Shown here one piece after another: positions 755 through 48,589 of a stretch of DNA of 64,000 nucleotides; position 1 is the stretch's first letter, and every line of letters starts with the position of its first letter. The DNA is from Candidatus Spongiihabitans sp. (GTDB lineage: Bacteria; Pseudomonadota; Gammaproteobacteria; Arenicellales; Poriferihabitantaceae), in NCBI RefSeq assembly GCF_965237845.1, contig NZ_OZ250154.1:2391228-2455227 (forward strand), written 5' to 3'. The notes below the pieces were generated by a model. It had not been told where the DNA came from, did no database searches, and worked only from the letters and a program-made list of their open reading frames with translations. The translations under genes were made by a program, and so were the position numbers.

Positions 755-2838
755 TTGACTGTGCATACCTTTGGCAAGCAACTCCACAACAAAGCGATCG
801 CCGCCCGCCATCGGTTTTGTATTGTTTTGAGCGGCAGCAAGCGCTGGGGAGAGAAATCCGCTTGAACGATTTGCGCTCAATATCCGCGGGATTCAATTGT
901 TCACGTCAGCAATTCCGACCAACGATTGATTGCAGATGACGCCGTTAAAACTTTGAAGATTGACCAGGCGAAACAGGCTTTAGGCAAAGAAATTGCTGCC
1001 GTTGTATATGATTGTTTCAGTGGCTTTGACCCAGATGCTGCGGGCATACTTGGCGGCGCCATAAAAGCGGGCGGGTTAATGGTTCTAATCACGCCTGAAC
1101 TCCCGCTTTGGCCTGAATTTGACGACCCGCAATTTGCCAAAATCACCGCCTACGGAAACCCAAAACCTGAATTCAGCTATTATATTAAGCGCTTAATTCG
1201 TATCATTTCTGAATCTTCAGATTGCATATTGATTCAGCAACATAAAACGCTTCCAAATCTGTCTGCTAATTACCAAACAACACCCGCTAGCCCACCTGAT
1301 TTTTCGGATCAAAACAAGGCGATCGAATCCATCAAGCATGTGGTTTATGGGCAAAGACGTCGACCAGCGATATTGCTATCGGATAGAGGAAGAGGAAAAT
1401 CCGCCGCCCTTGGCATCGCAGCAGGTCAATTGCTACAAGACAAAGCAAGGCGTATTGGCGTAACCGGCAACAGCAAACAGTCGGTTGCGAATGTATTCAA
1501 GCACGCCGCGCTCACGCATAACATTGTCGCAGATTCGTTGTGTTTTTACCCGGCGGATAAATTAATCGAGTCCAAACCTGAGATTGATTTGTTGTTGATC
1601 GATGAGGCCGCATCTATTCCATTATCAATGCTTGGGCGAATCCTGGAAATCTTTCCCAGAATCGCTTTTACCAGCACTGTTCATGGCTATGAAGGTACCG
1701 GCCGGGGTTTTATGTTGCGATTCAAAGAATTGCTCGATAGCCATTGCCGAGGAGCGGAAACCTGCATCCTGTCCACACCCATCCGTTGGGCGCAAGACGA
1801 TCCATTAGACGCATTTTTATTCGATGTATTATTACTCAATGCCGAGCCAGCTGGGATTTCGCTCCGTCACATTAATAAAAGCAAGGCCGATAACAGCAAG
1901 GTTGACACCAGTAAATTTGAGTTTAGCGTGATTGAAAAATCCGACTTGGTGGAAAATGAATCCTTGACTCGCGATGTGTTTGGCCTGCTAACCCAGGCGC
2001 ACTACCGCACCCGACCCCATGACCTTAGACACCTGCTGGATGCTGCCAATATAAGACTATTTGGAATCTGCCAACCAGGGCAACTTCAGCGGCAACTTCA
2101 ACAAAGGCAAATAATCGGGGTTGCAGTGGTTGCAATCGAGGGCGGATTTGACCATGAAACCGCAAACAAAATCTGGGCCAACCAATCGCGACCGAAGGAT
2201 CATTTGCTACCCGAGTTACTCTGTGCGCAACAAGGTCTTATCGATGCTGTGAAGTTAAAGACGGCCCGGATAATGCGAATTGTAGTGCGCCCTGAATTTC
2301 AACGGCATGGCGTTGGCAAAGGTCTGCTAACCCATATTTTCAATTTCTATAATCATGAAGTTGACCTGTTAGGGACAACATTCGGCGCAAATTTAGCGGT
2401 CTTGCAATTTTGGCTGGATAGCGAATTTATGCCGGTGCGAATTGGGCATAACCAAAGCCGCAATTCGGCAACTCACGCCTGTGCGATGATAAAACCCATT
2501 TCACCCCGCGGCAATCAATTAGCAACGCTGGCGGGAAATAAGTTTTCAGGCAACTTTCGCTACCAATTACGCGCAGTTTTTCCGAGCATCGATCCAGAAT
2601 TCGCTTTACTGAAATTACTATGCGATCGAATAGCCTGAGCCACGACGATCAACAGGAGATATTGACGGTTGAACGGATCTTGCTTGGCAAATCATGGAAA
2701 AATTGCACCGCCTTATCAAATCCCAAAGGTAAAAAACAAGGCGTTGCTGAACTAAGGAAAATTGTCGGCGCAATTCTTATAAAATTATACCCAAAACAAA
2801 TCAAACTCATACTGAAACAGTTCGGCCTTAAACCTTGA
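755..2838 (+). pseudogene. tmcA: tRNA(Met) cytidine acetyltransferase TmcA, interrupted by an in-frame TGA (863-865) and probably frameshifted near 2542-2638
   Basis: The body carries a Walker A motif (RGRGKSAALG), HGYEGTGRGF and a GNAT domain (RIVVRPEFQRHGVGKGLL). The same frame upstream of nt 926 is open back to nt 749 and reads (L/V)..HTFGKQLHNKAIAARHRFCIVLSGSKRWGEKSA*TICAQ, which resembles the TmcA N-terminus. ORF 2620-2838 (LSHDDQQEILTVERILLGKSW...GKKQGVAELRKIV) looks like the TmcA C-terminal tail in another frame. Confidence 0.7.
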
Positions 2839-2898
2839 ACTTTGAAACTGCTGCCAGTCGATCATATTTTGTAGGAGCACCCTTGTGGATACACTATC

Positions 2899-4008
2899 TT
2901 ACAAAAATAATAGTGATGATAATGCTGCAATAAAAACCCGGTTTTCCTGCTCTAATCCAATGGTCACACGGAGACAATTTTCAAGTGGCGAAGAGGGATT
3001 ATGCAAGTTTCTAATTAATACTCCTTTCTCCCTTAATCCGTTGAAGACCTCGTCGGCGCTACGCTCCACCCGGAACAAAAGAAAATTTGCCTCGCTGGGA
3101 AAGACTTCAATGCCGGAAATCTTGCTCATCTCCTGGAAAACCCAGCTCCGGTCTTTTCTTATTTGCCCGGCTTGTTGTTGCAGAATGTCGTGGTGTTGCA
3201 AATAAAATTGTGCGCTGGCCTGGCTCAAAATATTGTTGTTGTACGGCAATCGCAATTTCTCCATTTGCTCGATCCACTCAGGATTCCCTAGCATCAAGCC
3301 CAGGCGCAATCCTGCGAGCCCGCTTTTTGACATGGTTCTCAACACGATTAGATTTGGATGAGCAGCAATTTCGTTTATAAATGATTTTTGGCAAAATGCG
3401 AAATAGGCTTCATCAACCACAACCAAGCCCGGTGCGCTGTTTATAACTTGCTTGATGGTGGTCGGGTCAAAGCAATTGCCTATGGGGTTGTTCGGATAGG
3501 CGAAAAAAATACAAGCCGGACTGAATTCCTCCATTGCCTCAAACAAATTTTCAGCCTTGATTGAAAAATCAGCAGTTAACGGTATCCCTGCAAATTGTGT
3601 TGCCGTGGCCACGCTAATCTGTTGGTACATGGAGAATGTGGGCACCGGCGCGAGAAAAGTTCTGCCTACGCCGCCAACCAGCATTGCGATGATCTGAATC
3701 AGTTCATCGGAGCCGTTGCCTAACATCAACCCACATTCATCAGGGATGGAAAAACAACTACGAATCAACGCTTTCAACTCAGTGCTATCCGGATCAGGAT
3801 AGCGGTTAACCGAAACGCCGCCTAAAACCGATAACCATTCCTGTTTAAGCGTAGCGGGCAGCGTATATGGGTTTTCCATTGCATCCAGCTTTATCAACCC
3901 GGTTGAAGACGGCACCCGGTACGCCTTCATGGCGCGCACCTCAGCGGTTACCCATTTATCGATGGATGCTTTTGCGTTGTTGTTTGAATCAGGCATCAGG
4001 CTTCGCAT
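2899..4008 (-). CDS. hisC: Histidinol-phosphate aminotransferase
   Basis: 369 aa, class II aminotransferase. It has LDAMENPY, NGSDELIQ, YPNNPIGN and the PLP-lysine region RTMSKSGLAGLRLG. It overlaps hisD by 20 nt. Confidence 0.9.
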   Translation of the reverse strand: MRSLMPDSNNNAKASIDKWVTAEVRAMKAYRVPSSTGLIKLDAMENPYTLPATLKQEWLSVLGGVSVNRYPDPDSTELKALIRSCFSIPDECGLMLGNGSDELIQIIAMLVGGVGRTFLAPVPTFSMYQQISVATATQFAGIPLTADFSIKAENLFEAMEEFSPACIFFAYPNNPIGNCFDPTTIKQVINSAPGLVVVDEAYFAFCQKSFINEIAAHPNLIVLRTMSKSGLAGLRLGLMLGNPEWIEQMEKLRLPYNNNILSQASAQFYLQHHDILQQQAGQIRKDRSWVFQEMSKISGIEVFPSEANFLLFRVERSADEVFNGLREKGVLIRNLHNPSSPLENCLRVTIGLEQENRVFIAALSSLLFL

Positions 4009-5326: not shown

Positions 5327-5355
5327 TCAGGCCGTATTTTGATTTATGTTTCGAT

Positions 5356-5553
5356 TCATGTAATACGTCTGCACTCGACGAATGTTTGCACCGATTTGCG
5401 ACACACCGGGGACGTATCCCTACCCCTCGGTCTAGAGGGGATGGACCGTAAGTATTCGCAACTCATTTCAAAACACTCGCCGTCAGTGAACGACACCATC
5501 AGAGTTCGGGTCTTGCGATTGAGATTGATTTCGGTGGGAGTGTGTTGGCTCAT
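5356..5553 (-). pseudogene. DUF971-family gene remnant; only about 36 N-terminal residues are intact
   Basis: MSQHTPTEINLNRKTRTLMVSFTDGECFEMSCEYLR resembles the DUF971 N-terminus. The expected VHSPSAEV.GHG continuation is visible only in another frame, broken by stops (VHPL*TEG*GYVPG). Confidence 0.5.
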
Positions 5554-5561
5554 GTTTTCTT

Positions 5562-7637: not shown

Positions 7638-7646
7638 AGAATTGTT

Positions 7647-11035: not shown

Positions 11036-11094
11036 TGATAAATTTCCATAATGCTTTTAACCCTCACGTAAGGACGATACTATACGCTAAATTC

Positions 11095-11515
<421 letters not shown>

Positions 11516-11526
11516 AATAAAATCAA

Positions 11527-12834
<1,308 letters not shown>

Positions 12835-13155: not shown

Positions 13156-13173
13156 TTTGGCACTATATCAGGA

Positions 13174-13632
13174 CTATATCAGGCCCAATTCCAAACGCGC
13201 CGCCTCGCTGATCAATGCCGGGGTCCAGGGCGGGTCCCACACTAATTCCACGGCAGCGCCTTTAATCCCCGGAACCAAGGCCACGGTTCGTTCAACCATG
13301 CCGGGAAAGGTCGCCGCCACCGGACAACCCGGCGCGGTAAGGGTCATATCAATATCCGCAAAGGCATCGTTAATATCCACTTTATAAATCAACCCGAGGT
13401 CATAAATATTCACCGGAATCTCAGGATCGTAAACCGTTTTCAATGCCTCGACTACGCGCTCCGCTAACTCATTTTCGGTTGCTGCGGGTAAATCGTCTGT
13501 ATCGACTGGCGTATCAGTCGGTTGGCCACTCGGTTGGCTACTCGGTTGGACTGGGCCATTATCTGCATTAAACTGTTGCATGATTTCGGTTTTCCTCTTT
13601 TCAAGTTGCGGATCAAAATTTACTCGTTTCAT
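13174..13632 (-). CDS. sufT: DUF59/SufT-like Fe-S assembly protein with a Pro/Gln/Ser-rich N-terminal extension
   Basis: VVEALKTVYDPEIPVNIYDLGLIY...TLTAPGCPVA...VWDPPWTP. Confidence 0.75.
   Translation of the reverse strand: MKRVNFDPQLEKRKTEIMQQFNADNGPVQPSSQPSGQPTDTPVDTDDLPAATENELAERVVEALKTVYDPEIPVNIYDLGLIYKVDINDAFADIDMTLTAPGCPVAATFPGMVERTVALVPGIKGAAVELVWDPPWTPALISEAARLELGLI
13518..13553. repeat. 12-bp tandem repeat x3 (tcggttggccac / tcggttggctac / tcggttggactg)
   Basis: Read directly from the sequence. It encodes QPSSQPSGQPT in the sufT-like gene. Confidence 0.9.
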
Positions 13633-13655
13633 GGCTTAATAATTTGTTCAAATAA

Positions 13656-15711: not shown

Positions 15712-15772
15712 TTATATGACTCAGATTTGATTAAATTATTAAAAGACTTATCATTTTTCAGGGACGACGAGA

Positions 15773-19498: not shown

Positions 19499-22400
19499 AT
19501 GAAACTTGAAATCGCATTTTTAGATATTGAGGTTGGCGCCACCAGCAACAAAATAGATGATTTAGGTTATTTGTCTGAAAAATCAGCACTTGAAACGAGT
19601 TCTGTAAGTCAAATAAAAGACCGTTGTTTGCGTGAAGGAATTAGGTTTATTTGTGGACACAATTTTATTGAACACGATAAAAAATTTCTGGCAAAAACTA
19701 GTTTTAATCCAGTTTTAGAACAGATTAACATTATCGATACTTTGTATCTTTCAATGCTTTTATTTACTACTAAACGCACACACAAACTCGATAAACCATA
19801 TAAAAACAATCAAATCAATATTGAAAATCAGCCGTTAGGAGATGCTGCTCAAACAAAGGCATTATTTGAATTATTAGATAACGAGTTTGATAAACTATCA
19901 GTAAAAAAACAACAAATATTCTATCAATTATTAAAAAATGATAAATATTTTTCAGGTTTTTTTGATTTTAAAAAAGTAGCCAATAAAGAGATTGATATAT
20001 ACGAACAGATAAAAAAGCATATTGTTGTCAACAGTAAAGACTACAAAGAAAATGAAATAAATCATCCAGTAGAGATTGCTTTTATTATTTCTTATTTAAT
20101 GTCAAATGACAAAGGGGCTATATCATCAATTCTCTTAATCAAATATCCTGAAGTTGTAAAGTTATTAAAGCAACTTACTTTTGATAAAGACAAGGTAAAT
20201 ATTGAAAAATTTACCAAAGATGAATTTGGTGTTGATACTTTCAGGGAGTTTGATAAAAATGAGGTTGATGCTTATCAATTTTCCAGAGATGAACTTGCAC
20301 TTACCAACCCGACAGAGATTGAAAAAATATCACAAAAGGACATTATAGAAAGTGCGATTGATACCGATTCATTGCTAGCAATATTGCCAACGGGTGGCGG
20401 TAAAACCCTTGCTTTTCAAATCCCCGCTTTACTTAAAGCACAAAAATATAAAGGATTGAGTGTCGTTGTTTCCCCGCTTCAAGCCTTAATGAAAAACCAA
20501 ATAGATAGTTTCAGGCGTAAAAATAATAATTTTACGGTGCTGGCTATTAGTGGATATTTAAGCCCTATTGAACGCATGAACGCCATTACTGAAGTGGAAA
20601 ATGGGACTGCTGATATTTTGTATTTGGCACCTGAATCATTACGCTCTAATTCTATTTTTAACGCCCTTAAAAAACGCATTATTGAGCGCTTTATTATTGA
20701 CGAAGCACATTGCTTTTCATCTTGGGGGCATGATTTTAGGCACGATTACTATTTTATTGCCGAGACGATTAAGGAATTGGAACAATCCAGTTTTCAACCC
20801 CTTATTCCCGTGTCTTGCTTTACCGCAACAGCAAAGCCAGAGGTTATCAAAGATATAAAAGATTATTTCAAAGAAAAATTAGATATTACACTAAATAAGT
20901 TTATTGCCTCTGTTGAGCGTTATAACTTGCAATATAGCGTGATTGAAAGCAAAACAGCAGAGGATAAATACGAACAATTAATTAAAATTTTACTAGAGCG
21001 CGACAAAGCGAGCAAAAATCCGACCATTATTTATATTCCTCAAAACGCCAGACAATGCAGAGAACTGAGTGAAAAATTGCAAAATGATGAGCGGCTCACT
21101 GAGCTTGATTTGGTCATAGAACCTTTTTATGCCAAACTTGATGATGACAAGGAAGAGGGCAGAAGAGATAAAAACGCCAGAGGAAAATTTGAAATATTAG
21201 CGGATTTTATTGACAATAAAATTGATATTGTCATTGCAACCACTGCTTTTGGGATGGGGATTGATAAGGCGGATATTCAAACCATTATCCATTATCAGCA
21301 ATCGGATAGTTTGGAGTCTTATTTGCAAGAGTCGGGTCGTGGGGCGCGCGATGAAAATTTAATCGCCAAATGTATTGTCTTATATTCAAAAGAAGATTTT
21401 GATCGCTCGTTTACGCAGCTTAACCGCTCAAAAGTTGATATTGCCGAGATTAAAAGAATTGTCAAGGCGCTCAAAGGTTATGGAAACGACAAACTTAATT
21501 TATCGCCAAAAGACATTTCCAGAAAAATAGGGGTGGATACAGAAGACAGCAAAATTGATTATGACCTGATTATTAAAACTGCACTGTTGGAATTAGAACA
21601 ACACAATATTATTAAACGCGGTAGAGATGGTTATAAAATATTTGCAACTTCGCTTGAAAAACAAGAGCAGAAAAACATGTCTTTTGTGCATGAAGTGTTA
21701 GACCCTAAACAACAGCAAGAACCCTATATTGAGCTATATAAAGATATGATCTTGGTGATGCAAAATGTTATCCAACGGTCTAAATTAGACGCGATTGAAG
21801 TTGATGATTTGTCAGATATTGTTGGTGTGGGAAAACCAAGAATTTTTGATGTGCTATATCAGTTGCAAAAAGACGGATTATTGAAATTTAATAATGACAT
21901 TAGCCTCCATATTAAAAAATCAGTTCAAAAAGAGTTTGGGGATCATTTTGAGATGGAACAGAAGATATTTGACGGAATAAAAAATACTCCGGTTTACGAG
22001 AAAAGCATCAATTTACGAAGCCTGAATGATGAGAATAGCAATGATGTAATATTATTTAAGCAAATTATTCAAAGTTGGGGGCATTTATCAAGACTTAAAA
22101 ACAATATTTTTACCGCACGATTTAAAAACGATTTTTGCTTGTTTGAATTACAAGATGAACAAAAACTAGATAAACTCGTAAAAGCCAGAAAAGAATTATC
22201 ACTGTTTATTATTGAGCAATTACTGAACATATTAGGCACAGACATAGCCAAAGAGATTGAATTTTCCAGCAATAAAATAAAAGTGGATTATCACTCACCA
22301 ACACTGACCATAGAGGCGTTTCATCATACTTTTGTTTATTTGCACGATATGTTGAAAAGTTTTGAATTGCGTCGGGGTCGGTTGATTTATCATCACACCC

Positions 22401-23353: not shown

Positions 23354-23401
23354 CGCTTAAAGACCGATAAATTAGTAGCACATAGACAACAGCAGGGAAA
23401 A

Positions 23402-25173: not shown

Positions 25174-25181
25174 GATTCCAA

Positions 25182-27864: not shown

Positions 27865-30609
27865 TCAGAGTTTGCCGTGGCATTGCTTGAACTTTTTCCC
27901 GGAACCACAGGGACAGGGCTCATTCCTTCCAATCTTTTTGCCGTCTCTGACAAACGGCTGTTCTACTGATTCATTAACCGGTTGATGCGCGGATTGCCTA
28001 GCGGATTGCCTTCCGGGTTGCTCGCCCCCCGCGGTTGCCTCATTGTGAATGTATTTCACAGACTGCTCGCGCGCTTGTTGTGCGCGCAACCTTTGTTCCA
28101 TTTCCAGCATTTCATCCTGTGACGGCACGTGCACCTTGGCGAGAACAGAAATAACCTCGAATTTCATCGACTCAAGTAATGCGGTGAACATTTCAAACGC
28201 TTCGCGTTTGTATTCCTGTTTCGGGTTTTTCTGCGCATATCCGCGCAAACCAATTCCCTGGCGCAAATAATCCATATTTGCGAGATGCTCTTTCCACTGA
28301 CCATCCAGAACCTTGAGCATGACCTGTTTCTCGAAATGACGCATACTATCGCTGCCAACCCGCTCCTCCTTAGCCTGAGTCATATCCACTATGCTGTGCA
28401 AAATTTTCTTTCGAAGCGTTTCCTGATGAAGCGAATCGTCTTCATCGAGCCATTTGCGAATTTCCAAAGCGATCCCGAATTCGCTTTCAATTTCCTTCTC
28501 CAACTGCTCAACCTCCCATTGCTCCTCCAGCGTTTGCGGGGAAATAGACCGATCTATAACCGTGTTGACAACTTCTTCCCGGTTATCCACTACGTACTCT
28601 GAAATATCCTCGGTTTCCATCAACAGGTTGCGCTGTTCGTAAATTATCTTGCGTTGCTCATTGGCGACATCATCATATTCCAATAGTTGCTTTCGCATAT
28701 CAAAGTTATGGCCTTCCACTTTTTTCTGGGCATTTTCGATCGCACGAGTAACCCACGAATGTTCAATGGCTTCACCCTCCTCCATGCCCAGTTTTTCCAT
28801 CAGCCCGGCAATTTTTTGCGAACCGAAAATTCGCATTAAACTATCTTCGAGTGACAAAAAGAATCGGCTGGATCCGGGGTCGCCCTGGCGGCCGCATCTT
28901 CCTCGCAACTGATTATCCACCCGCCTGGATTCGTTTCGCTCAGTGCCCAGTACGTGCAAACCTCCCGCATCAATCACTTGCTGATGCCTTTTGTCCCACT
29001 GCTCGCGCGCCTCCCGCTTTTTATCGTCATGTGGAATTGCATTCAGTTCAATTTCCAAATTTCCGCCGAGCACGATATCCGTTCCACGGCCTGCCATATT
29101 GGTTGCAATGGTAATGTTGCCCGGGCGCCCAGCTTCAGCAATGATTTTAGCTTCGCTACCGTGATGTTTGGCATTTAAAACCTGGTGTTCAATACCTTTC
29201 TTTCCCAGGATTTGTGACAAATGCTCTGAAGTTTCAATGGAAGCGGTTCCGACCAGAACCGGTTGACTACGGGCACGGCACTCTTCTATACCCTCACAAA
29301 TGGCGGCATATTTTTCATTCGCTGTGCGATACACCAGATCCGCGGAATCGTCTCGCCACATCTCTTTATTAGTCGGGATAATAACCACTTCAAGGTCGTA
29401 AATTTGTAAAAACTCCGGCGCCTCGGTATCCGCCGTGCCGGTCATTCCGGCTAATTTGTCGTACAAACGAAAATAATTTTGAAAAGTAATCGAGGCTAAT
29501 GTTTGGCTCTCCTGTTGAATAGCCACCCCTTCCTTGGCTTCAATCGCTTGATGCAATCCTTCCGACCACCTGCGACCCGGCATCATACGCCCGGTGAACT
29601 CATCAATAATGACGATGGCATTGTCTCTTACAATGTAATCCACATCCTTGTTAAATAAATTGATGGCGCGCAACGCTGAATTGAGATGATGCATCAGGCT
29701 GATATTCGCGACCTCGTATAAACTACTGCCCGATTCGAGCAAACCTGCTCGGGTCAGTAGTTTCTCGGCATGTTCATGCCCTTCTTCAGTTAACGTAACT
29801 TGCCTTGATTTTTCATCAACCGAGAAATCCCCAGGTAAATATTCTGAGCCTTCAGGTTGTTCTTGTTTAACCAGATTGGGGACGATTATATTGATCTTGT
29901 TATACAAATCCGTGCTTTCTTCCGCTGGCCCGGAAATTATTAGCGGCGTTCGAGCTTCATCAATTAAGATGGAATCCACTTCATCGATAATGCCAAATCC
30001 TAAGCCGTTCTGAAATCGGTCTTGCCCGGAAAATGCCATGTTATCCCTTAAATAATCGAATCCAAACTCATTGTTGGTGCCATAGACAATATCGCTTTGA
30101 TAGGCTGTTTTCTTTGCCTCTCGATCCTGGCCTGACAGAATTACACCCACGGTTAAACCAAGAAACGAATAAATTTCCCCCATCCACTCGGCATCACGTT
30201 GCGCCAAATAGTCATTGACAGTGACGATATGGACCGGGCTGCCGGAAACGGCATTGAGATATGCGGGGAGAGTGGCTACCAGGGTCTTGCCTTCACCGGT
30301 TTTCATCTCAGTAATTTTTCCTTCATTCAATACGATGCCGCCAATCATTTGAACGTCGAAATGACGTAATCCCAAGGTGCGCACCGAGGCTTCCCGTACC
30401 ACCGCAAATGTTTCTGCTAACAATTCGTCTTTATCAGCACCCTTAGCAAAACGCGCCTTGAATTCAATCGTCTTGGCTGCCAGTTCATCGTTACTGAGAT
30501 CTTGCAAACCGCTTTCAAGGGCATTGATCTGGTTGACCGTTTTGCCCAGTTTTTTGAGAAGACGCTGGTTTCGGTCGCCAAAAAAAATTTTCAGTACATC
30601 CTGAAACAT
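27865..30609 (-). CDS. secA: Preprotein translocase ATPase SecA
   Basis: 914 aa with [43 protein letters not shown] and a C-terminal zinc motif [14 protein letters not shown]. Confidence 0.97.
27989..28024. repeat. 12-bp tandem repeat (gcggattgccta, gcggattgcctt, degenerate third unit)
   Basis: Read directly from the sequence. It encodes [12 protein letters not shown] in the SecA C-terminal linker. Confidence 0.85.
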
Positions 30610-33489: not shown

Positions 33490-33696
33490 TTTATTTCCTC
33501 CTCGTGTGTACTTCGATTAATATTTGTAAGGATTCGAGCACCGAGCCTTAGAGCGCTTGGTACTATTCTTCTTACAAGGCATGCTCGCGCCCGAACCAAA
33601 AATAACCACTCGAGGCGTAAGAGTAAACATTAAAAAATTAAGTCGTTTGAGACACTTAATCTCCGAAATAGAATTTGCCAATAAAATCTGCAATCA

Positions 33697-34932
33697 TCAA
33701 AAACTGCCCTTAAACCAGCCTTTCATCCGCTCCACCATAGATGTCACAACGCCAGGCTTATGTGATTGTTGTTGCATCTGATTGCGGTTTGCATATCCAA
33801 ATTGTGCAAGCCCTATGCCGGTGGAGTAAATTGGATTGCACACCACTTCACTGAGACCCCCTTCATAATTTGGCAATCCCTGGCGCACCGGCAAGTGAAA
33901 AATTTCTTCGGCCAGATCTATCATCCCTTCAATACGTGAACTGCCCCCGGTAAGCACAATGCCCGATCCAATGACTTCTTCAAACCCGCTTTTGCGTATT
34001 TCGACCTGGATCAACAACAGTAATTCTTCAATTCTCGGCTCAATAATCTCTGCAAGGTTTCGTCGGGATAGTGTTCGTGGTGGACGTCCGCCTATGCTCG
34101 GTGTTTCGATGGTTTGCCCTTCATCAACCAGTTGCACCAGTGTGCAACCAAATTTTTTCTTGATATCTTCTGCCGCCTGAGTCGGCGTATGAAAAGCAAC
34201 GGCGATGTCGTTGGTCACTTGATCGCCGGCAACCGGAATGACCGCGGTATGACGGATGGCGCCTTCGGTAAAAATCGCTATGTCGGTTGTGCCACCACCG
34301 ATGTCGATCATGCAAACACCAAGTTCACGCTCATCTTCGGTGAGCACCGCTTCACTGGAAGCAATTTGTTCGAGAATAATGTCATCAACTTCCAACCCGC
34401 AACGACGGATACATTTCACAATATTTTGCGCCGCACTGACCGCACCGGTAATCATATGCACTTTAGCTTCCATGCGCACGCCGCACATCCCTATCGGCTC
34501 ACGAATCCCGTCCTGCCCATCGATCACAAAATCCTGGGGCAATACATGCAAAATACGCTGATCATTAGGGATAGCCATCGCTTTTGCAGCATCGATCACT
34601 CGCTCTTTATCGCTTTGTGTGACTTCGTTGTCCTTAATCGCAACAACGCCGTGTGAATTGATACTGCGGATATGCGCTCCTGCAATGCCTGCGTAAACAG
34701 AATAGATTTGGCAACCCGCCATTAATTCTGCTTCCTCCACAGCCCGTTTGATTGACTGCACGGTGGATTCAATATTGGCGACCACGCCTTTTCGTAAGCC
34801 TGTTGCCGGATGATGGCCGACACCAATGACTTCCATTGTCCGGGTCGGTCCTACTTCAACCACGACAACCAGAACCTTGGAGGTCCCAATATCCAATCCT
34901 ACCACCAGATTATTATTTGATTTCTTCGGCAT
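33697..34932 (-). CDS. ftsA: Cell division protein FtsA
   Basis: VGLDIGTSKV, DIGGGTTDIAIF and VLTGGSSRIEG actin-fold motifs. Confidence 0.95.
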   Translation of the reverse strand: MPKKSNNNLVVGLDIGTSKVLVVVVEVGPTRTMEVIGVGHHPATGLRKGVVANIESTVQSIKRAVEEAELMAGCQIYSVYAGIAGAHIRSINSHGVVAIKDNEVTQSDKERVIDAAKAMAIPNDQRILHVLPQDFVIDGQDGIREPIGMCGVRMEAKVHMITGAVSAAQNIVKCIRRCGLEVDDIILEQIASSEAVLTEDERELGVCMIDIGGGTTDIAIFTEGAIRHTAVIPVAGDQVTNDIAVAFHTPTQAAEDIKKKFGCTLVQLVDEGQTIETPSIGGRPPRTLSRRNLAEIIEPRIEELLLLIQVEIRKSGFEEVIGSGIVLTGGSSRIEGMIDLAEEIFHLPVRQGLPNYEGGLSEVVCNPIYSTGIGLAQFGYANRNQMQQQSHKPGVVTSMVERMKGWFKGSF

Positions 34933-35017
34933 AATATTGACTAGTCGCGCCTCGTTTAGTTATTTTTTGAACGTGGCATCGAGTATTGGCTATGTTTAAG
35001 TTTGTTCTTAAAAAATA

Positions 35018-35911
35018 TTAAGGGTGCGAGGTAAACCCCGATTCGGTAATATTTTGTGCAACGGATTGAGAGCCCTGCCAGCTAATCGCAAAGCCATTGG
35101 GATAGCGCAGGTCAATGGTTTTCATTTGCGGAAATTGAACGATAAGTTCCTGATTCAACGCTTCAATAAACCGTTCAATGCGGGGAAATGCATTGGCTTT
35201 GTCCACCACCATAGTCACTTTAGCGGGCCGGTCGATTATTTGCCCCGAACCTTGAGTAGATTGCCCCCCACTCAACGCCAGCGCTCCCATAGAAAGTTTC
35301 AGCCGCCATAAATCTCTTGAATCCAAACTCAGTTGTTCGAGGGCTAAGCCGTTGGAAGAAAATTGTTCTGACCATTGCTGAAACGCTTTCCAAACGATCT
35401 GTTTTTGGTCGGCGGAACCATACAGCAAAGGCAAATCATGGTTGCTTTTGTTCCCGCCCCCGTGCTGACGATCAACCAGGTCTCCGGTAAAATTAAGCCA
35501 CTTGCCCTCTCCCCACCTGGCCACGGGTTGAACTTCCACCACATCAACCATAATGGTGGATGGCCATTGTCGCCGCAGCGATGCGGAAAATACCCAGGGA
35601 ATTTGCTTTATTTCGTTTTCGAGCCGACGCAAATTAACGGAAAAATAATTGCCTTCGAGTGTTGCTTCAGCAATCTGTTTCACTTGTGCGCCATCGACAT
35701 GGTTAAAGCGCCCATGCACTTCGATTTCTTTAATCTGAAATTTTTGCGGATCAAACAATCGATCAGCGACAAACAGCACCACGAGCGAGGTCAGTAATAT
35801 GACTGCCATTAGCATTATCCAGCGTGGCCGTGTGTTCACAACCAGGTCGGCAGGGGTCTGTTGCAACTCGGAAGCCCTATCCGAAAGATTGCGGGAAGAT
35901 AATGAATTCAT
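35018..35911 (-). CDS. ftsQ: Cell division protein FtsQ
   Basis: TM segment followed by a POTRA domain (FQIKEIEVHG...IPWVFSASLRRQWPSTIMVDVVEVQPVARW). Confidence 0.8.
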   Translation of the reverse strand: MNSLSSRNLSDRASELQQTPADLVVNTRPRWIMLMAVILLTSLVVLFVADRLFDPQKFQIKEIEVHGRFNHVDGAQVKQIAEATLEGNYFSVNLRRLENEIKQIPWVFSASLRRQWPSTIMVDVVEVQPVARWGEGKWLNFTGDLVDRQHGGGNKSNHDLPLLYGSADQKQIVWKAFQQWSEQFSSNGLALEQLSLDSRDLWRLKLSMGALALSGGQSTQGSGQIIDRPAKVTMVVDKANAFPRIERFIEALNQELIVQFPQMKTIDLRYPNGFAISWQGSQSVAQNITESGFTSHP

Positions 35912-39395: not shown

Positions 39396-40603
39396 CTTCG
39401 ACCTCCGGGCTGTGGCCTGCTTTGTCGATCAACTGCAAACAACAATCCCACAGCAGCCATGCTGATTAACATACTGCTGCCGCCGTGACTCATCATCGGC
39501 AAGGTTATTCCTTTGGTCGGCAGTAATCCGGTATTCACGCCGATATGCACACCCGCTTGCAAAGCGAACAGCAGGCCGATACCCTGTGCCAGAAAGCCTG
39601 AAAACCGCTGCCCCAACTGCAGTGCTCTATGGGAGATAGCAAACGCACGAAACAATAACAACGTGAAAAGCGTTAATACGCCGAAGATACCTACCGCCCC
39701 CAATTCTTCACCGATGATGGCAATCAGGAAATCATTGCTTGCGTGTGGAAGATAGAACAATTTTTGAATGCTGCTGCCGAGGCCGACGCCAAACCATTCA
39801 CCCCGACCAATTGCGATTAGCGCCTGAATCAATTGAAACCCATTACCATATGGGTCGGCCCAGGGATCCCGGTAACTTAACAATCGTGCTACCCGATAGG
39901 GCTCCATCCACATAATGGAAGCCAGTAGCATGACAACCATACTGAGACCGATCAGGAAATGCCAGAAACGAACCCCTGCTAAAAACATCATTCCTGCAAT
40001 GGCAGTGGTTATCACCACAGCGGTGCCAAAGTCAGGTTCAAGAAGAAGCAATACTCCGATTGCCCCTACTACCAAACCAGTATTGATAATGCCGACTTTG
40101 AATAGATGCAAATCTTCGCGCTTCCTCGCTAGGTAGTCGGCGAAATAAATAATCCCGGCGATCTTCATAAACTCAGACGGTTGAAATCGGATACCCCCTA
40201 AATCGATCCATCGAATACTGCCGTTGACCTCCACGCCCACGCCAGGGAAAAGCACTACAACCAATAACAGCAATCCAATCAGCAACAATGCCTTGCTCGC
40301 TGCGGCAAGCCAATTCATTCGAATCGAGGCGGCCATGAAAAGTAGTACGCTCCCCAGGCCAATATGCAATAGATGTTTAATAAGAGGGTTGAAGTTGATA
40401 TCCAAAGTGCGGCTGTCAACCGTTATGGTTGCGGAATAAACCATGACCACGCTCAGGGACAGCAAGGCAATCACCGTAAACATTAACCATTGGTCATAGG
40501 ATGAAACTTCGCTTACACGATTCGCTTGAAACGCGGTTGCCCTGGTGTTCATTGCGGTGCGGTTCATTGCGGTGCGGTTTATTGCGGCCTGGTTAGCTAA
40601 CAT
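39371..40603 (-). CDS. ftsW: Lipid II flippase / SEDS protein FtsW
   Basis: Multi-TM protein with QPSEFMK, YLPHASNDFLIAIIGEELG and LPTKGITLPMMSHGGSS. The start is set at ATG 40603. The track's 40708 start is also possible. Confidence 0.9.
   Translation of the reverse strand: MLANQAAINRTAMNRTAMNTRATAFQANRVSEVSSYDQWLMFTVIALLSLSVVMVYSATITVDSRTLDINFNPLIKHLLHIGLGSVLLFMAASIRMNWLAAASKALLLIGLLLLVVVLFPGVGVEVNGSIRWIDLGGIRFQPSEFMKIAGIIYFADYLARKREDLHLFKVGIINTGLVVGAIGVLLLLEPDFGTAVVITTAIAGMMFLAGVRFWHFLIGLSMVVMLLASIMWMEPYRVARLLSYRDPWADPYGNGFQLIQALIAIGRGEWFGVGLGSSIQKLFYLPHASNDFLIAIIGEELGAVGIFGVLTLFTLLLFRAFAISHRALQLGQRFSGFLAQGIGLLFALQAGVHIGVNTGLLPTKGITLPMMSHGGSSMLISMAAVGLLFAVDRQSRPQPGGRRCEAPDQK
40551..40595. 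repeat. 15-bp tandem repeat x3 (attgcggtgcggttc, attgcggtgcggttt, attgcggcctggtta)
   Basis: Read directly from the sequence. It encodes INRTAMNRTAMN at the FtsW N-terminus. Confidence 0.9.
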
Positions 40604-40729
40604 GTTGTTTCCTGGACTCACTTCGCAACCCTGATATTTTGGGGAACGAGCACGAGCATGAATTAAACAACGAACTTTTAATAAACCTATACTCGGTGTC
40701 ACGTTCAAAGAATTTATAAACGGGGCGAT

Positions 40730-42103
40730 TCAATGCACCAGCTCCCAAACCAGTTGTTTGTAAACATTGCCGCGATGTTCGTAGTTGTCGAACATGTCGA
40801 AACTTGCACAAGCCGGAGAAAACAAAACCACCGAGCCTGATTGCGCTAATTTTCTCGCATGAACTACCGCTTGTTCCAATAAATCAACCCGGGTGCTGGG
40901 CACTGATTGATCAAGGCTTTCGAAAATTATTCCTGCGTCCTCGCCAAACAAAATGGTGTGCTTTACACGCTCTTTGATGACCTGGGCCAATTGCGAGAAA
41001 TCAGCCCCCTTGCCTTTGCCCCCGGCGATTAAAATGAGGTCCTGCGAAAAGCCTGTAATCGCCGCTATGGTTGCACCGGCATTGGTGCCTTTGGAATCAT
41101 TAATCCACTTTACCCCATTGACTTCAGCAACAATTTCACAACGATGGGGCAGCCCGCCATAATTAAGCGCGGCATTAATCACCACCGGATTCAACTCAAC
41201 CCCGGCAGTTTCCACCAGCGCCATCGCGGCCAGAATATTGGCAATGTTTTGCTCGCCCTGGAGAGTAATTTGTTCTACCCGCGCAAGCAGGGTTTCACCG
41301 TGCAACAGCGATCGTGAATTGCCTGACTCCGCCACACCGAATTGATTGGCCGCCTGGGGAGCATCCAAACCAAAGCTGGTCATTGAAGTATTCTGCGAAG
41401 TATTCTGGCATGGCCGGGGATTTGTGAGTACATCATCCCGATTAACCACTACCTTGTTGGCGTTTTCAAATATTCTTTTCTTGGCATTAATATAATCATC
41501 CAGAGTGGGGTATCGATCCATATGGTCTGCGCTAATATTCAGCACCGTAGCTGAACAGGCGTTCAACGAATAAGTCGTTTCCAACTGGAAACTGGACAAC
41601 TCCAGGACATAATAATCAGGGACATAATAATCGGGTAATGCATGGTCGAGTAAATCCAGAACCGGGGTTCCAATATTGCCGCCGGTTTTTACTTTCAGCC
41701 CCGCGGCTAACATCATTTCGGCAACCAGCATGGTCACGGTGGATTTGCCATTGGAGCCGGTTATCGCAATGATCGGGGCTTCGGCCTGTTTGACAAACAA
41801 TTCAATATCACCGATTAGCGCTCCCCCATTGCTGAAATTTTGCCGCTCTATTTCAATGCCGGGACTAGTGACTATTTGATTGAAACTCCCAAACCACGCA
41901 TATGGTATCTGTCCGGTGATAATTTCCACACTCGGAAATTCATCTTTGACCTGTTTCAGATACGGCGGCAACTCCCGCGAATCCGCCACAGTAACCTGCA
42001 TCCCTGATTTCACCAGATATTTGACCACCGAGTAACCGGTTGACCCAAGTCCTATCACCAGAATCCGATCATTGTTCGGTTGAATGGAATTTGCCATGTT
42101 CAA
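40730..42103 (-). CDS. murD: UDP-N-acetylmuramoylalanine--D-glutamate ligase
   Basis: VIGLGSTGYS, ITGSNGKSTV and DSKGTNAGA. Confidence 0.93.
   Translation of the reverse strand: MNMANSIQPNNDRILVIGLGSTGYSVVKYLVKSGMQVTVADSRELPPYLKQVKDEFPSVEIITGQIPYAWFGSFNQIVTSPGIEIERQNFSNGGALIGDIELFVKQAEAPIIAITGSNGKSTVTMLVAEMMLAAGLKVKTGGNIGTPVLDLLDHALPDYYVPDYYVLELSSFQLETTYSLNACSATVLNISADHMDRYPTLDDYINAKKRIFENANKVVVNRDDVLTNPRPCQNTSQNTSMTSFGLDAPQAANQFGVAESGNSRSLLHGETLLARVEQITLQGEQNIANILAAMALVETAGVELNPVVINAALNYGGLPHRCEIVAEVNGVKWINDSKGTNAGATIAAITGFSQDLILIAGGKGKGADFSQLAQVIKERVKHTILFGEDAGIIFESLDQSVPSTRVDLLEQAVVHARKLAQSGSVVLFSPACASFDMFDNYEHRGNVYKQLVWELVH
41385..41408. repeat. 12-bp tandem duplication (gaagtattctgc / gaagtattctgg) in murD
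   Basis: Read directly from the sequence. It encodes QNTSQNTS. Confidence 0.9.
41605..41634. repeat. 15-bp tandem duplication (ggacataataatcag / ggacataataatcgg) in murD
   Basis: Read directly from the sequence. It encodes PDYYVPDYYV. Confidence 0.9.
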
Positions 42104-42115
42104 TACCCCAACTCC

Positions 42116-43198
42116 TCAGCGCACCTTCAATGTGGCTAATCCGATCAATACCAGGATCAGGCTTATAATCCAAAAACGCACAATAATCTTTGGCTCAGGC
42201 CACCCTTTCAATTCAAAATGATGATGGATCGGCGCCATGCGAAACAGTCGGCGACCTATCAATTTAAAAGAGACGACCTGCAAAATGACCGACACGGTTT
42301 CCATGACAAATATCCCGCCCATCACCATCAGCACAATTTCCTGGCGCACAATTACCGCGACAATACCAATCGCAGCACCGAGGGAAAGCGCGCCGATGTC
42401 TCCCATAAATACCTGAGCCGGATAGGTGTTGAACCATAGAAACCCGAGACCTGCTCCGACCAGCGCCGAACAAAATATGAGCACCTCTCCTGCGCCAGCA
42501 ATATAAGGAATTCCAAGGTATCCCGAAAAATTGGCGTTTCCGGTGGTGTATGCAAATACCCCTAAGGCCCCGGCCACCATGACGGCCGGCATAATCGCCA
42601 AGCCATCTAATCCATCGGTCAAATTCACGGCGTTACTGGTTCCAACCACAACCAGGTAAGTAAGTACTATGAATCCCCAACCCAGTGGAATTGCCACGTC
42701 TTTAAACAGCGGAACCAGCAACGCGGTTTCCGCTGGAGACCGCGCGGTATAAAATAGAAAAAAGGCGGTTATCAATCCAGAAACGCTTTGCAGCAGAAAT
42801 TTATTGCGCGCTCCCATCCCCTTGGGATCTTTGTTGATTAGTTTTTGATAATCGTCAACCCAACCGATCAAACCAAAAGCAATGGTGGTAAATAAAATCA
42901 CCCATATATATCGGTTGGTCAAATCCGCCCATAACAACGTGGCAACGACTACGGCAATTAATATCATAGCGCCGCCCATTGTCGGGGTGCCGACTTTGCT
43001 GAAATGCATGGGCGGCCCGTCTGCCCGGACAGTTTGGCCAATTTTGTGGTCACTCAGTTTTCGAATCATCGTCGCCCCAAAAATAAAAAATATCCCAATG
43101 GCAGTGAGTACGCCGCAGATGCCGCGAAATGTCAGATATCGAAATACATTGAAGAAACTATAGTCCTGAGAAAGATTGTTGAACAGCCAGGTCAGCAT
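42116..43198 (-). CDS. mraY: Phospho-N-acetylmuramoyl-pentapeptide transferase
   Basis: [33 protein letters not shown] and APIHHHFE. Confidence 0.95.
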
Positions 43199-44790
43199 GG
43201 TTTAGTCCCTTCTCGATGATCCAATTGCCCATGGTCCTGTCCATAATCCTGTCCATAATCCTGTCCATATTCAAAATCTTCGGCTTCGATAATTTCGGCA
43301 ACCACTCGCTCCATCATCGACGACCTCGACCCTTTGACCAAAACCGCCACGCCGTCACTTAAATTGCCCTTCAATTCAGCCACTAAATCGTCCAAACTTT
43401 CAAAAACCTGAGCGCCCTTGCCGAAACCATGCGCGTAATCCCTGGCATTGTTATCACTCCCATTATTATCTTGGGAGACCAGACACATGAGAATATCCAT
43501 GCGCTTTTTATTGGCATAGCGACCCACTTCATTGTGTCGTTGCTTGCTCATTTTTCCGAGTTCTGCCATAGCACCCAAAACCAAAATCCTTACCCCGTCG
43601 AAATTTGCAAGCACATCAATGCCGGCCTTAATCGACTGGGGATTGGCGTTATAACTATCGTCGATCACCATGCACCCCATAAGCCCCTGCTTCGGATTCA
43701 GCCGACCACTCACTGCCTGCATGTTTTCAAGCCCGGTTTTTATGGACTGTATCGTGGCGCCGGCGGCGTAACAGATTGCGGCGGCGGCCAGGGCATTCAT
43801 TACATTGTGGCGACCCGGCAAGGTTAGATTGATGGCGATGTGTTGTTCATCATGCTGTTCATCAACAATGTGCAAATCGAAACGGCTTGTCAGCCATTCA
43901 GATTTCGCTTCGGATAATATTTTTTGGGTCGAGCGCCGAGTCTTTATTTGTTTGGACCCTGTTTGGTGCCTACGGCTTGGCGCCCGGTCTAAACTTTTAT
44001 AACTCCCGAGGCGCAAATTAGTTACGGTCAGGTCTGCGGGTTTTTCCATCGCAAAAGAAATCACTCGACCGGTTTTTAACTGAGGCTTGACCTGAGCCAA
44101 CCATTGATCGCTGAATTGGTCGTCTGCGTTAATCACCGCAGTCCCGTTTTCCTTTAATCCGGAAAAAATTTCTGCTTTTGCCTGAGCAATTTGTTGCAGG
44201 TTACCCAGTCCCTCAAGATGGGCTGGGGCAACATTATTAATTAACGCAATCGTCGGCCGGGTTAAGCGACTGAGGGTGGCGATTTCCCCAATGTGGTTGG
44301 CGCCCATTTCGATGACCGCAAAATCATGGCTCTCATTTAATTTAAGCAATGTCAACGGTACGCCCCATTGATTGTTAAAACTTCGCTCCGGGAACAAGCA
44401 ATTTCCGCATTGATTCAATATCGATGCGGCCATAGCGGTGACTGTGGTTTTTCCATTGCTGCCGGTAATCGCCAGCACCGGAATATCGAAGCGCAAACGC
44501 CAGTGGCTTGCCAGTTGCCCGAGTGCTTGCGTGGTATCCGAGACTTTGATTTTGGGCATATCAATTTGAGCGAAATCGGTATTCACGGCAGCGGAAACCA
44601 TGGCCCCTACCGCCCCTTTCTTTTTCGCCTGGGCGACGAAATCGTGACCATCGAATTTTTCTCCCGGGATGGCAACAAATAAGTCTCCCCGATCGACAGT
44701 TCTGGAATCCGTGGCAACCGTCGTGAACAGCGCATCCGCACCGTATAGTTTTCCCTGAACGATATTGGCGGCTTCCGATAGCGCCATCAT
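43192..44790 (-). CDS. murF: UDP-MurNAc-tripeptide--D-Ala-D-Ala ligase, unusually long (532 aa)
   Basis: [35 protein letters not shown] and DDSYNANP. It carries a roughly 39-aa basic insert (aa ~263-301) and a repeat-encoded C-terminal tail. Confidence 0.9.
43235..43270. repeat. 12-bp tandem repeat x3 (tcctgtccataa x2, tcctgtccatat)
   Basis: Read directly from the sequence. It encodes [12 protein letters not shown] in the MurF C-terminal tail. Confidence 0.9.
43841..43864. repeat. 12-bp tandem duplication (tgttgttcatca / tgctgttcatca) in murF
   Basis: Read directly from the sequence. It encodes DEQHDEQH. Confidence 0.85.
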
Positions 44791-46385
44791 GTCAGCTCCT
44801 CAAGAAGTTCTGGAACCATTGCCCGGTCGCTCAATGGGTTAACAGCATTGCCGATTGTCTGAGTGTGTTCATGACCTTTTCCCGCCAGCAAAATTAAATC
44901 ATCTTGATTGGAAGATTTAATCGCTTCCGCCATTGCTTGTCTACGATCATGAATGACCGTAATGGGTTGGCTCAATCCTTGTTTTATTTGTTCAATAATT
45001 TGTGCGGACGGTTCGGTACGCGGGTTGTCATCGGTTACGATGATTCGGTCAGCGATTGATTGTGCAATCCGGCCCATTTGCGCTCGTTTGTCTTGATCGC
45101 GGTCACCGCCGCAGCCAAATACCACGACCAGATTTCCGCGACACAGTGATTTGAGGGATTTAAGCGCACGCTCCAGTGCGTCCGGTGTATGCGCATAATC
45201 CACCACCACCGCAGGCTGGGCCGGACGATTGCTAAACACTTCCATTCGCCCTGGCGGCGCAGCGATGTGGGCAACAACTTCTGCTATTGCACCCATTGCA
45301 TAACCCATTGCGAACAGACAACCGATAGCGGCAAGAATATTCGGTACATTAACTTCTCCTAACAGCCTTGAATGAATCTGTTGGCGGCTCCGCTGGCCCT
45401 GAAACGCCAATTTAAACCGTATTCCCTGGTCATCCGTTTCCAATTCAACCGGTTGCAACTCTCCAGACTTCATGCCGTAGCTAACGCAGGTTAGTCCTTG
45501 ACCCCGCCAATTGCATAATTGCAGCAGCTCACGGCCAAAATTATCGTCACTATTTATTACCACGGCGTTGAGCGAGGCGAATTCAAACAACTTTTGTTTG
45601 GCGTCGCCATAGCGGGTCATGGATTGGTGATAGTCGAGATGGTCCTGGGTTAAATTTGTGAATATGGCAATATCGAAATCGATGCCATTGGCTCGGCCCT
45701 GCTCCAGTCCATGAGAAGAGACTTCCATACTGACCGCGCCAGCCTGGTTGGCTAAAAATTCGAACAACTGTTCATGAATGGATATCGCATCCATAGTCGT
45801 CAATTCCGAATGTTGCAGATCGCTAACGAATCCACTGCCGATGGTTCCAGAATAACCACACCGTATGCCGAGCAATTCCAATGCCTGGGCGATCAAATAA
45901 GCGGTCGTGGTTTTGCCATTGGTACCGGTAATTCCAATCATTTTCAGATTCTTGGACGGATTACCGAAATACCGCGCCGCAATTATCCCGAGTTTTTGTT
46001 GCAGGTTTTCTATGCCAATCACCAGCGCGTCCTGCTTGACCGAGTCCTTTAGCAAGGCACTACGGCTGGCACCGATCTTTTCGAACAACACAGCCGCCGC
46101 GCCATTAGCCAATGCCTGATCGATATACGCCCGCCCGTCGGTTATCATTCCCGGCAGCGCAATAAACATATCGCCAGACCCGACCCTTTGACTGCTGAGT
46201 TGAAGCGCCGCAATCAGACAATCATGGCCTTGCTCCACTTCAGCATATCCCGCCAACAATTCACTTAACCAAATTGTTGCCGACGGATTTGCCAGGCCCG
46301 CTTTATGCAGGCCCGCTTTATGCAGGCCCGCTTTATGCAGACCAGTTTCATGCAGACTGGCTTTTTGATGATTAATCATCGGCAT
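44787..46385 (-). CDS. murE: UDP-MurNAc-L-Ala-D-Glu--meso-DAP ligase
   Basis: GITGTNGKTTT, the DYAHTPDALE region and DNPRTE. The start is set at ATG 46385 (MPMINHQ), because the track's 46457 start overlaps ftsI. Confidence 0.92.
   Translation of the reverse strand: MPMINHQKASLHETGLHKAGLHKAGLHKAGLANPSATIWLSELLAGYAEVEQGHDCLIAALQLSSQRVGSGDMFIALPGMITDGRAYIDQALANGAAAVLFEKIGASRSALLKDSVKQDALVIGIENLQQKLGIIAARYFGNPSKNLKMIGITGTNGKTTTAYLIAQALELLGIRCGYSGTIGSGFVSDLQHSELTTMDAISIHEQLFEFLANQAGAVSMEVSSHGLEQGRANGIDFDIAIFTNLTQDHLDYHQSMTRYGDAKQKLFEFASLNAVVINSDDNFGRELLQLCNWRGQGLTCVSYGMKSGELQPVELETDDQGIRFKLAFQGQRSRQQIHSRLLGEVNVPNILAAIGCLFAMGYAMGAIAEVVAHIAAPPGRMEVFSNRPAQPAVVVDYAHTPDALERALKSLKSLCRGNLVVVFGCGGDRDQDKRAQMGRIAQSIADRIIVTDDNPRTEPSAQIIEQIKQGLSQPITVIHDRRQAMAEAIKSSNQDDLILLAGKGHEHTQTIGNAVNPLSDRAMVPELLEELT
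46296..46340. repeat. 15-bp tandem repeat, three perfect units (gcccgctttatgcag) flanked by degenerate units (46281-46370)
   Basis: Read directly from the sequence. It encodes LHETGLHKAGLHKAGLHKAGLANP at the MurE N-terminus. Confidence 0.92.
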
Positions 46386-46401
46386 TGCGCTATTCGTTTC
46401 C

Positions 46402-48147: not shown

Positions 48148-48152
48148 GTCGG

Positions 48153-48176
48153 TTTATGCCCTTTATGCCCTTATGG
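48153..48176. repeat. 9-bp tandem repeat (tttatgccc x2 plus a partial unit) in the ftsL-ftsI intergenic region
   Basis: Read directly from the sequence. Confidence 0.8.
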
Positions 48177-48241
48177 TTTGGGTATATCCAAAAAATAAAC
48201 AACAGAAGGGTAAAACCGATGGAGCCTTTGTGGTTGTATTC

Positions 48242-48589
48242 CTAGCCACCCTTCGCCCCCATTGCCTTTATTGAGCGCGTGCCTTTATTGAACATGCCTT
48301 TATTGAAGGCGCTGTTCAATTGGTCCCCCGCCATCTGCACAGTAATAATTTGCTCCGGCGGTGGCGGCAGCATCCCCAATCTAGTGCCAGCGTCATCAGC
48401 GATGTTATTCTCCATGGCCCAGGTTGCTTTTTCCAGCATCAGCCTGCCCCACTCGGATTGTAACTGATTGCGCTGATTCTCCATTTCTTGCAGGTCAATA
48501 AATGACAACCGATTTTCGTGGCGGACGGTGACCACGAACAACGCACTGGCCAGCACCACAATCAGCATAAAAACAGATGGTTTGCTCAT
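48242..48589 (-). CDS. ftsL: Cell division protein FtsL
   Basis: Small bitopic protein, VVLASALFVVTVRHENRLSFIDLQEMENQRNQLQSEWGRLMLE. Its position between rsmH and ftsI fits. The C-terminal tail carries a thrice-repeated 11-mer, gcctttattga (48264, 48281, 48296). Confidence 0.7.
   Translation of the reverse strand: MSKPSVFMLIVVLASALFVVTVRHENRLSFIDLQEMENQRNQLQSEWGRLMLEKATWAMENNIADDAGTRLGMLPPPPEQIITVQMAGDQLNSAFNKGMFNKGTRSIKAMGAKGG

Follow-up and report, generated by a model that had tools for sequence, protein, structure and literature searches.

Short tandem duplications in the window analysed here, a 64-kb stretch of a Candidatus Spongiihabitans genome (G000:C1:2391228–2455227), very probably reflect, on a local scale, a mutational bias that runs through the whole genome and the genus, and are not devices of the genes that host them. 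The genome, referred to as G000, is one contig of 2.74 Mb with 48% G+C and belongs to the order Arenicellales. A first-pass annotation of the window had noted recurrent in-frame 12- and 15-bp duplications inside essential genes, and had ascribed their density to elevated replication slippage or micro-duplication, possibly combined with relaxed purifying selection. Elevated micro-duplication was borne out, at 5–20 times the density found in relatives outside the genus, while simple slippage as its cause was not, for most events. Nor was the feature tied to essential genes or to the window, as it was found genome-wide and was common to at least five genomes of the genus. The description that accounts best for these data, and in which we place considerable confidence, is a lineage-specific bias towards duplication of 9–16-bp segments, followed by selection on the reading frame and by growth or loss of the resulting arrays.

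Exact tandem duplications, defined as two or more head-to-tail identical copies, were tallied per period. G000 contained 147 exact duplications of 10–15 bp, or 54 per Mb, where about 3.5 would be expected at random. By period, the counts were 13 (10 bp), 16 (11 bp), 46 (12 bp), 22 (13 bp), 13 (14 bp), 37 (15 bp), 5 (16 bp), 0 (17 bp) and 4 (18 bp), with a random expectation below one for each period from 11 bp upward. The duplications were evenly distributed round the chromosome, and 136 of the 147 lay in unique DNA. Densities in relatives were determined from samples of 240–400 kb, not full genomes, taken from four congeners (G001, a Candidatus Spongiihabitans sp. metagenome-assembled genome, G002, G005 and G006) and from single-contig assemblies of three other genera, which served as outgroups (G013, G017 and G019). 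The congeners gave 55 (G001), 88 (G002), 108 (G005) and 35 (G006) exact 10–15-bp duplications per Mb, and the outgroups 2.5 (G013), 10 (G017) and 7.5 (G019). A control set, consisting of the same division and cell wall (dcw) cluster from 78 other bacteria (0.99 Mb in total), gave 9.1 per Mb, with just two duplications of period 12–15. The comparison with relatives that the first-pass annotation had proposed as a check thus showed a higher density, genome-wide.

Imperfect arrays, identified using Tandem Repeats Finder (TRF) with a score of at least 40, showed a smaller contrast, at 267 per Mb in G000 versus 126 per Mb in the control loci. The surplus over controls was limited to periods 11–16, and period 18 was not raised (4.4 versus 16 per Mb). 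The window itself contained 18 TRF rows, and other 64-kb bins of G000 typically contained 14–25. The density in the window is therefore ordinary for this genome, and the arrays are not special to it.

The split between coding and non-coding DNA was made using a crude open reading frame (ORF) caller and is approximate. Non-coding DNA of the genus carried 140–460 duplications per Mb, versus 0–50 in the outgroups, and coding DNA, counted at in-frame periods, carried 14–55 versus 2.7 per Mb. The non-coding size spectrum, pooled over five genomes of the genus, formed a hump at 9–15 bp and fell sharply at 16–17 bp (9 bp, 22; 10 bp, 9; 11 bp, 14; 12 bp, 21; 13 bp, 22; 14 bp, 13; 15 bp, 19; 16 bp, 5; 17 bp, 1; 18 bp, 0). 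Within ORFs of the five genomes, duplications of 12 bp (64) and 15 bp (36) predominated, with only 2–6 for each of the periods 10, 11, 13 and 14. This shows that selection works as a reading-frame filter: lengths of 9–15 bp all survive in non-coding DNA, and almost only 12 and 15 bp in genes. Per period, the density in genes was roughly 40% of that in non-coding DNA, and 11 out-of-frame duplications were found inside ORFs. Since the surplus is also present in non-coding DNA, either the input of duplications or their retention is raised, and protein tolerance cannot be the whole story. Relaxed purifying selection by itself is insufficient for the same reason. As a separate observation, in-frame exact duplications had a 1.9-fold higher per-base density in leading-strand than in lagging-strand genes (43 versus 16, p = 0.03, uncorrected; origin and terminus placed from G+C skew alone), which is only a hint of a strand effect.

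Junctions were examined through the extension k, the number of bases by which an array runs past two copies. In G000, k was 0 in 47 cases, 1 in 16, 2 in 8, and 3 or more in 76; in the four congeners pooled, the corresponding counts were 38, 15, 7 and 40. The classes k = 0–2 match the proportions produced by chance extension (59/30/11%), and many arrays with k of 3 or more continue into a third copy that has decayed. Blunt duplications, lacking the microhomology that slipped-strand duplication would call for, accordingly make up about 60% of events in the five genomes. Given the blunt junctions and the abrupt limit at 16 bp, classical slipped-strand mispairing between short direct repeats is unlikely to be the primary event. 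No boundary motif was found at the duplications, the units of which had 40–44% G+C, and pre-duplication sites showed no raised hairpin potential. Base composition and chromosome position were discarded as determinants, given this composition and the even spread.

The arrays of the window are given below. The names tmcA-like, murA, sufT, secA, ftsW, murD, murF, murE and ftsI are from NCBIfam model matches, whereas ftsL was named by position and size alone. Every array on the first-pass list exists and, by TRF and direct reading, yields the peptides claimed when translated in frame; tmcA alone is weak. The 11-bp duplication at the 3′ end of sufT was missing from that list.

2081–2104, plus strand: tmcA, QLQRQLQQ; 12-bp pair in which 9 of 12 bases agree (3 mismatches), not in the TRF output.
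11537–11563, minus strand: murA, C-terminal tail NMNQNMNQ; exact 12 bp × 2.2, by TRF and direct reading.
13162–13183, no strand assigned: sufT 3′ end, ACTATATCAGG × 2; exact 11-bp duplication, by TRF.
13518–13553, minus strand: sufT, N-terminal QPSSQPSGQPT; 12 bp × 2.7 (about 3), TRF span 13518–13549.
27989–28024, minus strand: secA, linker RQSARQSA; 12 bp × 2.7, TRF span 27989–28021.
40547–40595, minus strand: ftsW, N-terminal NRTAMNRTAM; 15 bp × 2.7–3.2, TRF span 40547–40594.
41385–41408, minus strand: murD, QNTSQNTS; 12 bp × 2, TRF span 41385–41407.
41605–41634, minus strand: murD, PDYYVPDYYV; 15 bp × 2 with one mismatch, by direct reading.
43235–43270, minus strand: murF, C-terminal tail YGQD × 3; exact 12 bp × 2.9, TRF span 43235–43269.
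43841–43864, minus strand: murF, DEQHDEQH; 12 bp × 2 with one mismatch, by direct reading.
46293–46364, minus strand: murE, N-terminal GLHKA × 3 plus degenerate units; 15 bp × 4.2, by TRF.
48153–48176, no strand assigned: ftsI–ftsL spacer, 9-bp TTTATGCCC × 2.2; TRF span 48153–48172 and direct reading.
48263–48310, minus strand: ftsL, C-terminal FNKGM units; 15 bp × 2.9 with an indel, TRF span 48263–48307.

Alignment showed that 9 of the 11 gene arrays in the window vary in copy number among congeners. The murA array, located past the C-terminal limit of the MurA family model (residue 417), has one unit fewer in G002 and two fewer in G005, where the aligned proteins end in NMNRN-TA and NQN--TA, respectively. 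In sufT, the N-terminal array precedes the conserved domain (beginning at about residue 45–56) and has fewer copies in G002 and more in G005, while the 11-bp duplication at the 3′ end is present in three copies in each of these genomes. The latter is out-of-frame and spans the stop-codon region, so that the C-terminus or 3′ end varies among species. The secA array, in the linker that joins the translocase core to the C-terminal SEC-C motif, also differs in copy number among congeners. The ftsW array precedes the start of the family model (residue 61–72) and has one unit fewer in G002; that of murE is represented by two diverged units in G002 and G005, with none in G006. The ftsL tail had been described as an 11-mer repeated three times. 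It is in fact the 15-bp FNKGM unit, of which G000 has two, G002 three and G005 four. For the tmcA pair, no orthologue fell within the sampled stretches of the congeners, and from its sequence the pair may have arisen by chance.

The YGQD array of murF is decayed but of equal length in G002, and absent from G005, G001 and G006. DEQHDEQH occupies residues 309–316 of MurF, within a lineage-specific insertion (matches to relatives break at residues 260–296, just upstream); it has extra units in G005 and none in G001 or G006. The murF gene as a whole (43192–44790) encodes 532 amino acids, versus about 460–510 in relatives other than G000 and G002, the surplus consisting of the insertion around residues 261–316 and the repeat-built C-terminal tail. 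QNTSQNTS of murD is shared with G002 only, and G005, G001 and G006 are 4–5 residues shorter at this position. The PDYYV pair does not vary in this manner. It immediately precedes the conserved LELSSFQLE motif. Two copies are present in G000, G001, G002, G005 and G006, but only one in G004, G013, G017, G019 and about 20 other proteobacteria; it is an old duplication fixed in a conserved core.

The first-pass annotation had placed most arrays at protein termini or surface linkers. This is correct for most of those in the window, which are tails or linkers outside the family models, but not genome-wide, as exact in-frame duplications in G000 are spread evenly along ORFs. Older arrays of several copies would be expected to persist in tails and linkers.

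The duplications are also recent. G000 and G002 share approximately 90% nucleotide identity. For 13 exact duplications of G000 an orthologous site was available in the sampled part of G002, and 12 of them differed in length: 6 had exactly one unit fewer in G002, 1 had more and 5 were otherwise different, leaving 1 equal. Had the orthologues carried identical segments, the repeats would have been ancient; the copy numbers instead mostly differ, so the duplications are recent and recurrent. The spectrum of indels between the two genomes had secondary peaks at 12 bp (19 + 13) and 15 bp (7 + 8), above the counts at 6 and 9 bp. Indels of 9–16 bp made up about 18% of the total, and 46–57% of them were copies of adjacent sequence, compared with 14–26% of shorter or longer indels. 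From two copies onward, units are added and lost, as shown by the copy-number differences between species.

The course of events can be described on this basis. Segments of 9–16 bp are copied head-to-tail at sequence-unspecific sites, at a rate about 5–20 times that in related genera. Selection on the reading frame then filters the products, after which the arrays expand or contract, with a few becoming fixed in conserved cores. As for the primary event, the likeliest candidate, which we put forward tentatively, is that replication or repair copies a stretch of primer or patch size a second time, the product being sealed without homology. Bacterial primers are about 10–14 nt in length and excision-repair patches 12–13 nt, sizes that resemble the duplication range observed here. 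It is possible, if short of probable, that the lineage has acquired and long kept a blunt, homology-independent process producing primer- or patch-sized (9–16-bp) duplications at any place in the chromosome, with an enzymology that would be new to bacteria, and that this process is a main source of protein-length change, extending even to the cores of essential enzymes.

Ordinary slippage with an unusual size bias is a less likely primary event. A rival explanation holds that ordinary slippage between short direct repeats becomes visible only through relaxed purifying selection in a host-restricted symbiont of small effective population size; we find this rather doubtful, although several observations are consistent with it. 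About 40% of arrays extend at least 3 bases past two copies, arrays expand and contract between species, and in-frame duplications are tolerated at approximately 40% of the non-coding density, anywhere along ORFs. A symbiotic lifestyle, judged from the title of a congener's record, would also fit. RecA-independent slipped-strand duplication likewise produces short tandem duplications and subsequent expansion and contraction of arrays. It needs microhomology at the junction, however, and approximately 60% of the events in five genomes have none. Furthermore, the excess over other genera is 5–10-fold in non-coding DNA, and the sharp drop at 16–17 bp, with 18-mers not raised, would be unexpected of a process that depends on distance.

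Fill-in of staggered nicks by some nuclease is an unlikely primary event, and is named as a candidate only. Taken together with the related idea that the duplications are transposon target-site footprints, left after excision and end joining, it stands a little lower still. Either process would be expected to leave blunt, homology-free duplications of a fixed size range, and target-site duplications, excision footprints and paired-nick fill-in do resemble the present events in being blunt, homology-free tandem duplications of set length. DDE transposases are moreover present in the genus. The insertion sequence (IS) families examined, however, make target duplications of only 2–5 bp (IS481-like, 5 bp; IS30-like, 2–3 bp; IS5-like, 3 bp), and no mobile element with a 9–16-bp target duplication was found among them. 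Matches to DDE_Tnp_1 ranged from 4 in G000 to 78 in G001, genomes of like duplication density, and IS footprints were rejected, as IS copy number is unrelated to that density. There was no boundary motif that could represent a cut site. A 1.7-kb insert with 12-bp flanking repeats was considered and proved to be a single-copy transporter gene. A casposase-type activity was similarly set aside. G013 and G017 yielded no Cas1, and the Cas1 match in G000 belongs to an ordinary type I-F CRISPR-Cas locus (G000:C1:1558191–1569037) that comprises Cas1, Cas2-3 apparently as two ORFs, Csy proteins, Cas6f and arrays.

Excision footprints would also call for end joining, and a search of five genomes found no Ku. 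An ATP-dependent ligase match was present in 6 of 7 genomes of the genus (not found in G004) and in none of three sampled outgroups, so that it follows high duplication density across the eight genomes sampled. In G000, it is a LigE-like minimal ATP-dependent DNA ligase located outside the window, at G000:C1:2352526–2353458, with a signal-peptide-like N-terminus. LigE-type matches also occur in genera from which no density sample was taken (G008, G009 and G014). As a cause of the duplications, this ligase is both confounded and mechanistically unlikely, the N-terminus resembling that of periplasmic LigE. Products of nonhomologous end joining by Ku and LigD were discounted on the same grounds, since this is the sole ATP-ligase match and there is no Ku.

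A defect in repair or replication that raises the duplication rate, be it in mismatch repair, RecJ or other single-strand exonucleases, UvrD or the Pol I flap nuclease, is improbable. The first-pass annotation had pointed to mutS, mutL, uvrD and recJ, and all four are intact. mutS is full-length in 6 of 7 genomes of the genus, the exception being G006, where two frames share the gene. Full-length mutL is present in the three genomes of the genus searched. As far as presence and length can indicate, recJ, uvrD, xseA, dinB, rnhA, holC and recQ are likewise complete in the genomes of the genus searched. The polA 5′-nuclease domain (PF02739) was present in 31 of 31 genomes, with a second copy (xni) in G000, a result that concerns presence and not activity. 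A mismatch-repair mutator lineage was excluded on the presence of mutS and mutL and on G019, which is without mutS, mutL and recJ yet has only 7.5 duplications per Mb. Exonuclease I (ExoI) was not found in any genome searched. Its absence would suit a repair defect, but it is equally missing from the low-density outgroups. Loss of a repair or replication gene was therefore rejected, every other gene tested being present.

In support of a flap-type defect, unprocessed Okazaki flaps have been linked, in yeast as well as human cells, with duplication mutations (yeast rad27/FEN1, 3′-flap pathway; PMC13202174). Those duplications are short, as they are here, and are tied to lagging-strand maturation; unlike that situation, the Pol I 5′ nuclease, xni and RNase HI are present in G000. 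A flap-nuclease-deficient duplicator of the rad27 or polA-exo type was rejected because the 5′ nuclease is present. In addition, flap-type duplications are flanked by direct repeats or arise from nearby annealing, which does not apply to most events in this genus. The likeness that remains is one of size, to the lengths of primers and patches.

It is very improbable that the repeats are adaptive, whether as contingency loci or as selected low-complexity linkers. Copy number does differ between species, and most window arrays lie in tails or linkers outside family models, but non-coding DNA shows the same excess at all periods of 9–15 bp, out-of-frame duplications occur too, the unit sequences are unrelated, and the proteins affected have housekeeping functions rather than surface or regulatory ones. 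Variable-number tandem repeats (VNTRs), as used in multilocus VNTR analysis, and contingency loci similarly have head-to-tail units in multiples of 3 bp that vary in copy number between related genomes. The duplications described here differ in numbering hundreds of unrelated units, mostly in two copies and within a narrow range of unit size, in housekeeping genes and non-coding DNA. Contingency loci would be confined to a few switched genes, whereas the 147 duplications of G000 are spread evenly across housekeeping genes and spacers. An artefact of assembling or polishing long-read metagenomes is hardly credible: the genomes are indeed metagenome-assembled, but the single-contig G013, G017 and G019 lack the excess and the 40-contig G002 has it, and decayed arrays are shared across independent assemblies, one being conserved at the protein level in five genomes.

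Several points weigh against the mutational bias as described here. No gene gain or loss accounts for the bias, all repair and replication genes tested being present, and blunt joining normally requires an end-joining system, of which the Ku component was not found in five genomes. The relatives were sampled at 240–400 kb only, and the coding calls are crude. About 40% of arrays exceed two copies, and microhomology may genuinely have been involved in some of them. A lower rate of duplication loss, instead of a higher rate of formation, could give an equal standing density. Finally, the high-density genomes form one clade and represent a single transition, so that correlations with gene content are confounded.

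As a type of mutation, short tandem duplications are familiar. The genus stands out in that they account for about a fifth of its indels, and in combining a sharp 9–16-bp size range with a seemingly full complement of repair genes; it is the size window and the mostly blunt junctions that are surprising, and the repeats in essential genes, as first framed, are a by-product. In prokaryotes, two-copy repeats of 9–11-bp units (9n2, 10n2, 11n2) were found to be normal or weakly over-represented, with a strong excess in a few archaea, in intergenic DNA only (Huang and Mrazek 2014, PMC4060949). The present excess differs from that survey in being strong in both genes and spacers and in peaking at 12–15 bp. 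In a literature search, no account of this signature came to light, either for bacteria or for the genus.

Two other features of the window were recorded. Insertions of approximately 106 bp occupy the ftsZ–ftsA spacer (33510–33617) and the ftsA–ftsQ spacer (34932–35038). They are absent from G002 and/or G005 and are related to other hairpin-type repeats of 106–111 bp in the genome. They are REPIN-like, which places small mobile elements inside the dcw operon; as REPIN-like hairpin elements are not makers of target duplications, a footprint of miniature inverted-repeat transposable elements was dismissed. Positions 19499–24394 form a low-G+C island (34%, versus 45–50% around it) that encodes a fused DEAD-box and UvrD-like helicase. 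Among 31 relatives, the island is found in G000 and G002 only, between which it is 97–99% identical, compared with approximately 90% elsewhere. In G002 the helicase is one frame of 1635 amino acids; in G000 a CAA-to-TAA change near 23351 leaves ORFs of 1284 and 330 amino acids. Probably this was a defence-type gene, acquired recently and since broken. The helicase was rejected as a cause of the duplications, being restricted to these two genomes.

The genus thus offers a natural system in which to study the origin of homology-free short duplications in bacteria. Such events lengthen essential proteins, among them MurA, MurD, MurE, MurF, FtsW, FtsL and SecA. For annotation, this is a warning that tails, insertions and some frameshifts in conserved proteins of these organisms are products of the bias, and not functional novelties. 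As copy number varies between species, the loci would probably also be of use, as the first-pass annotation had suggested, for typing these uncultured symbionts at fine scale.

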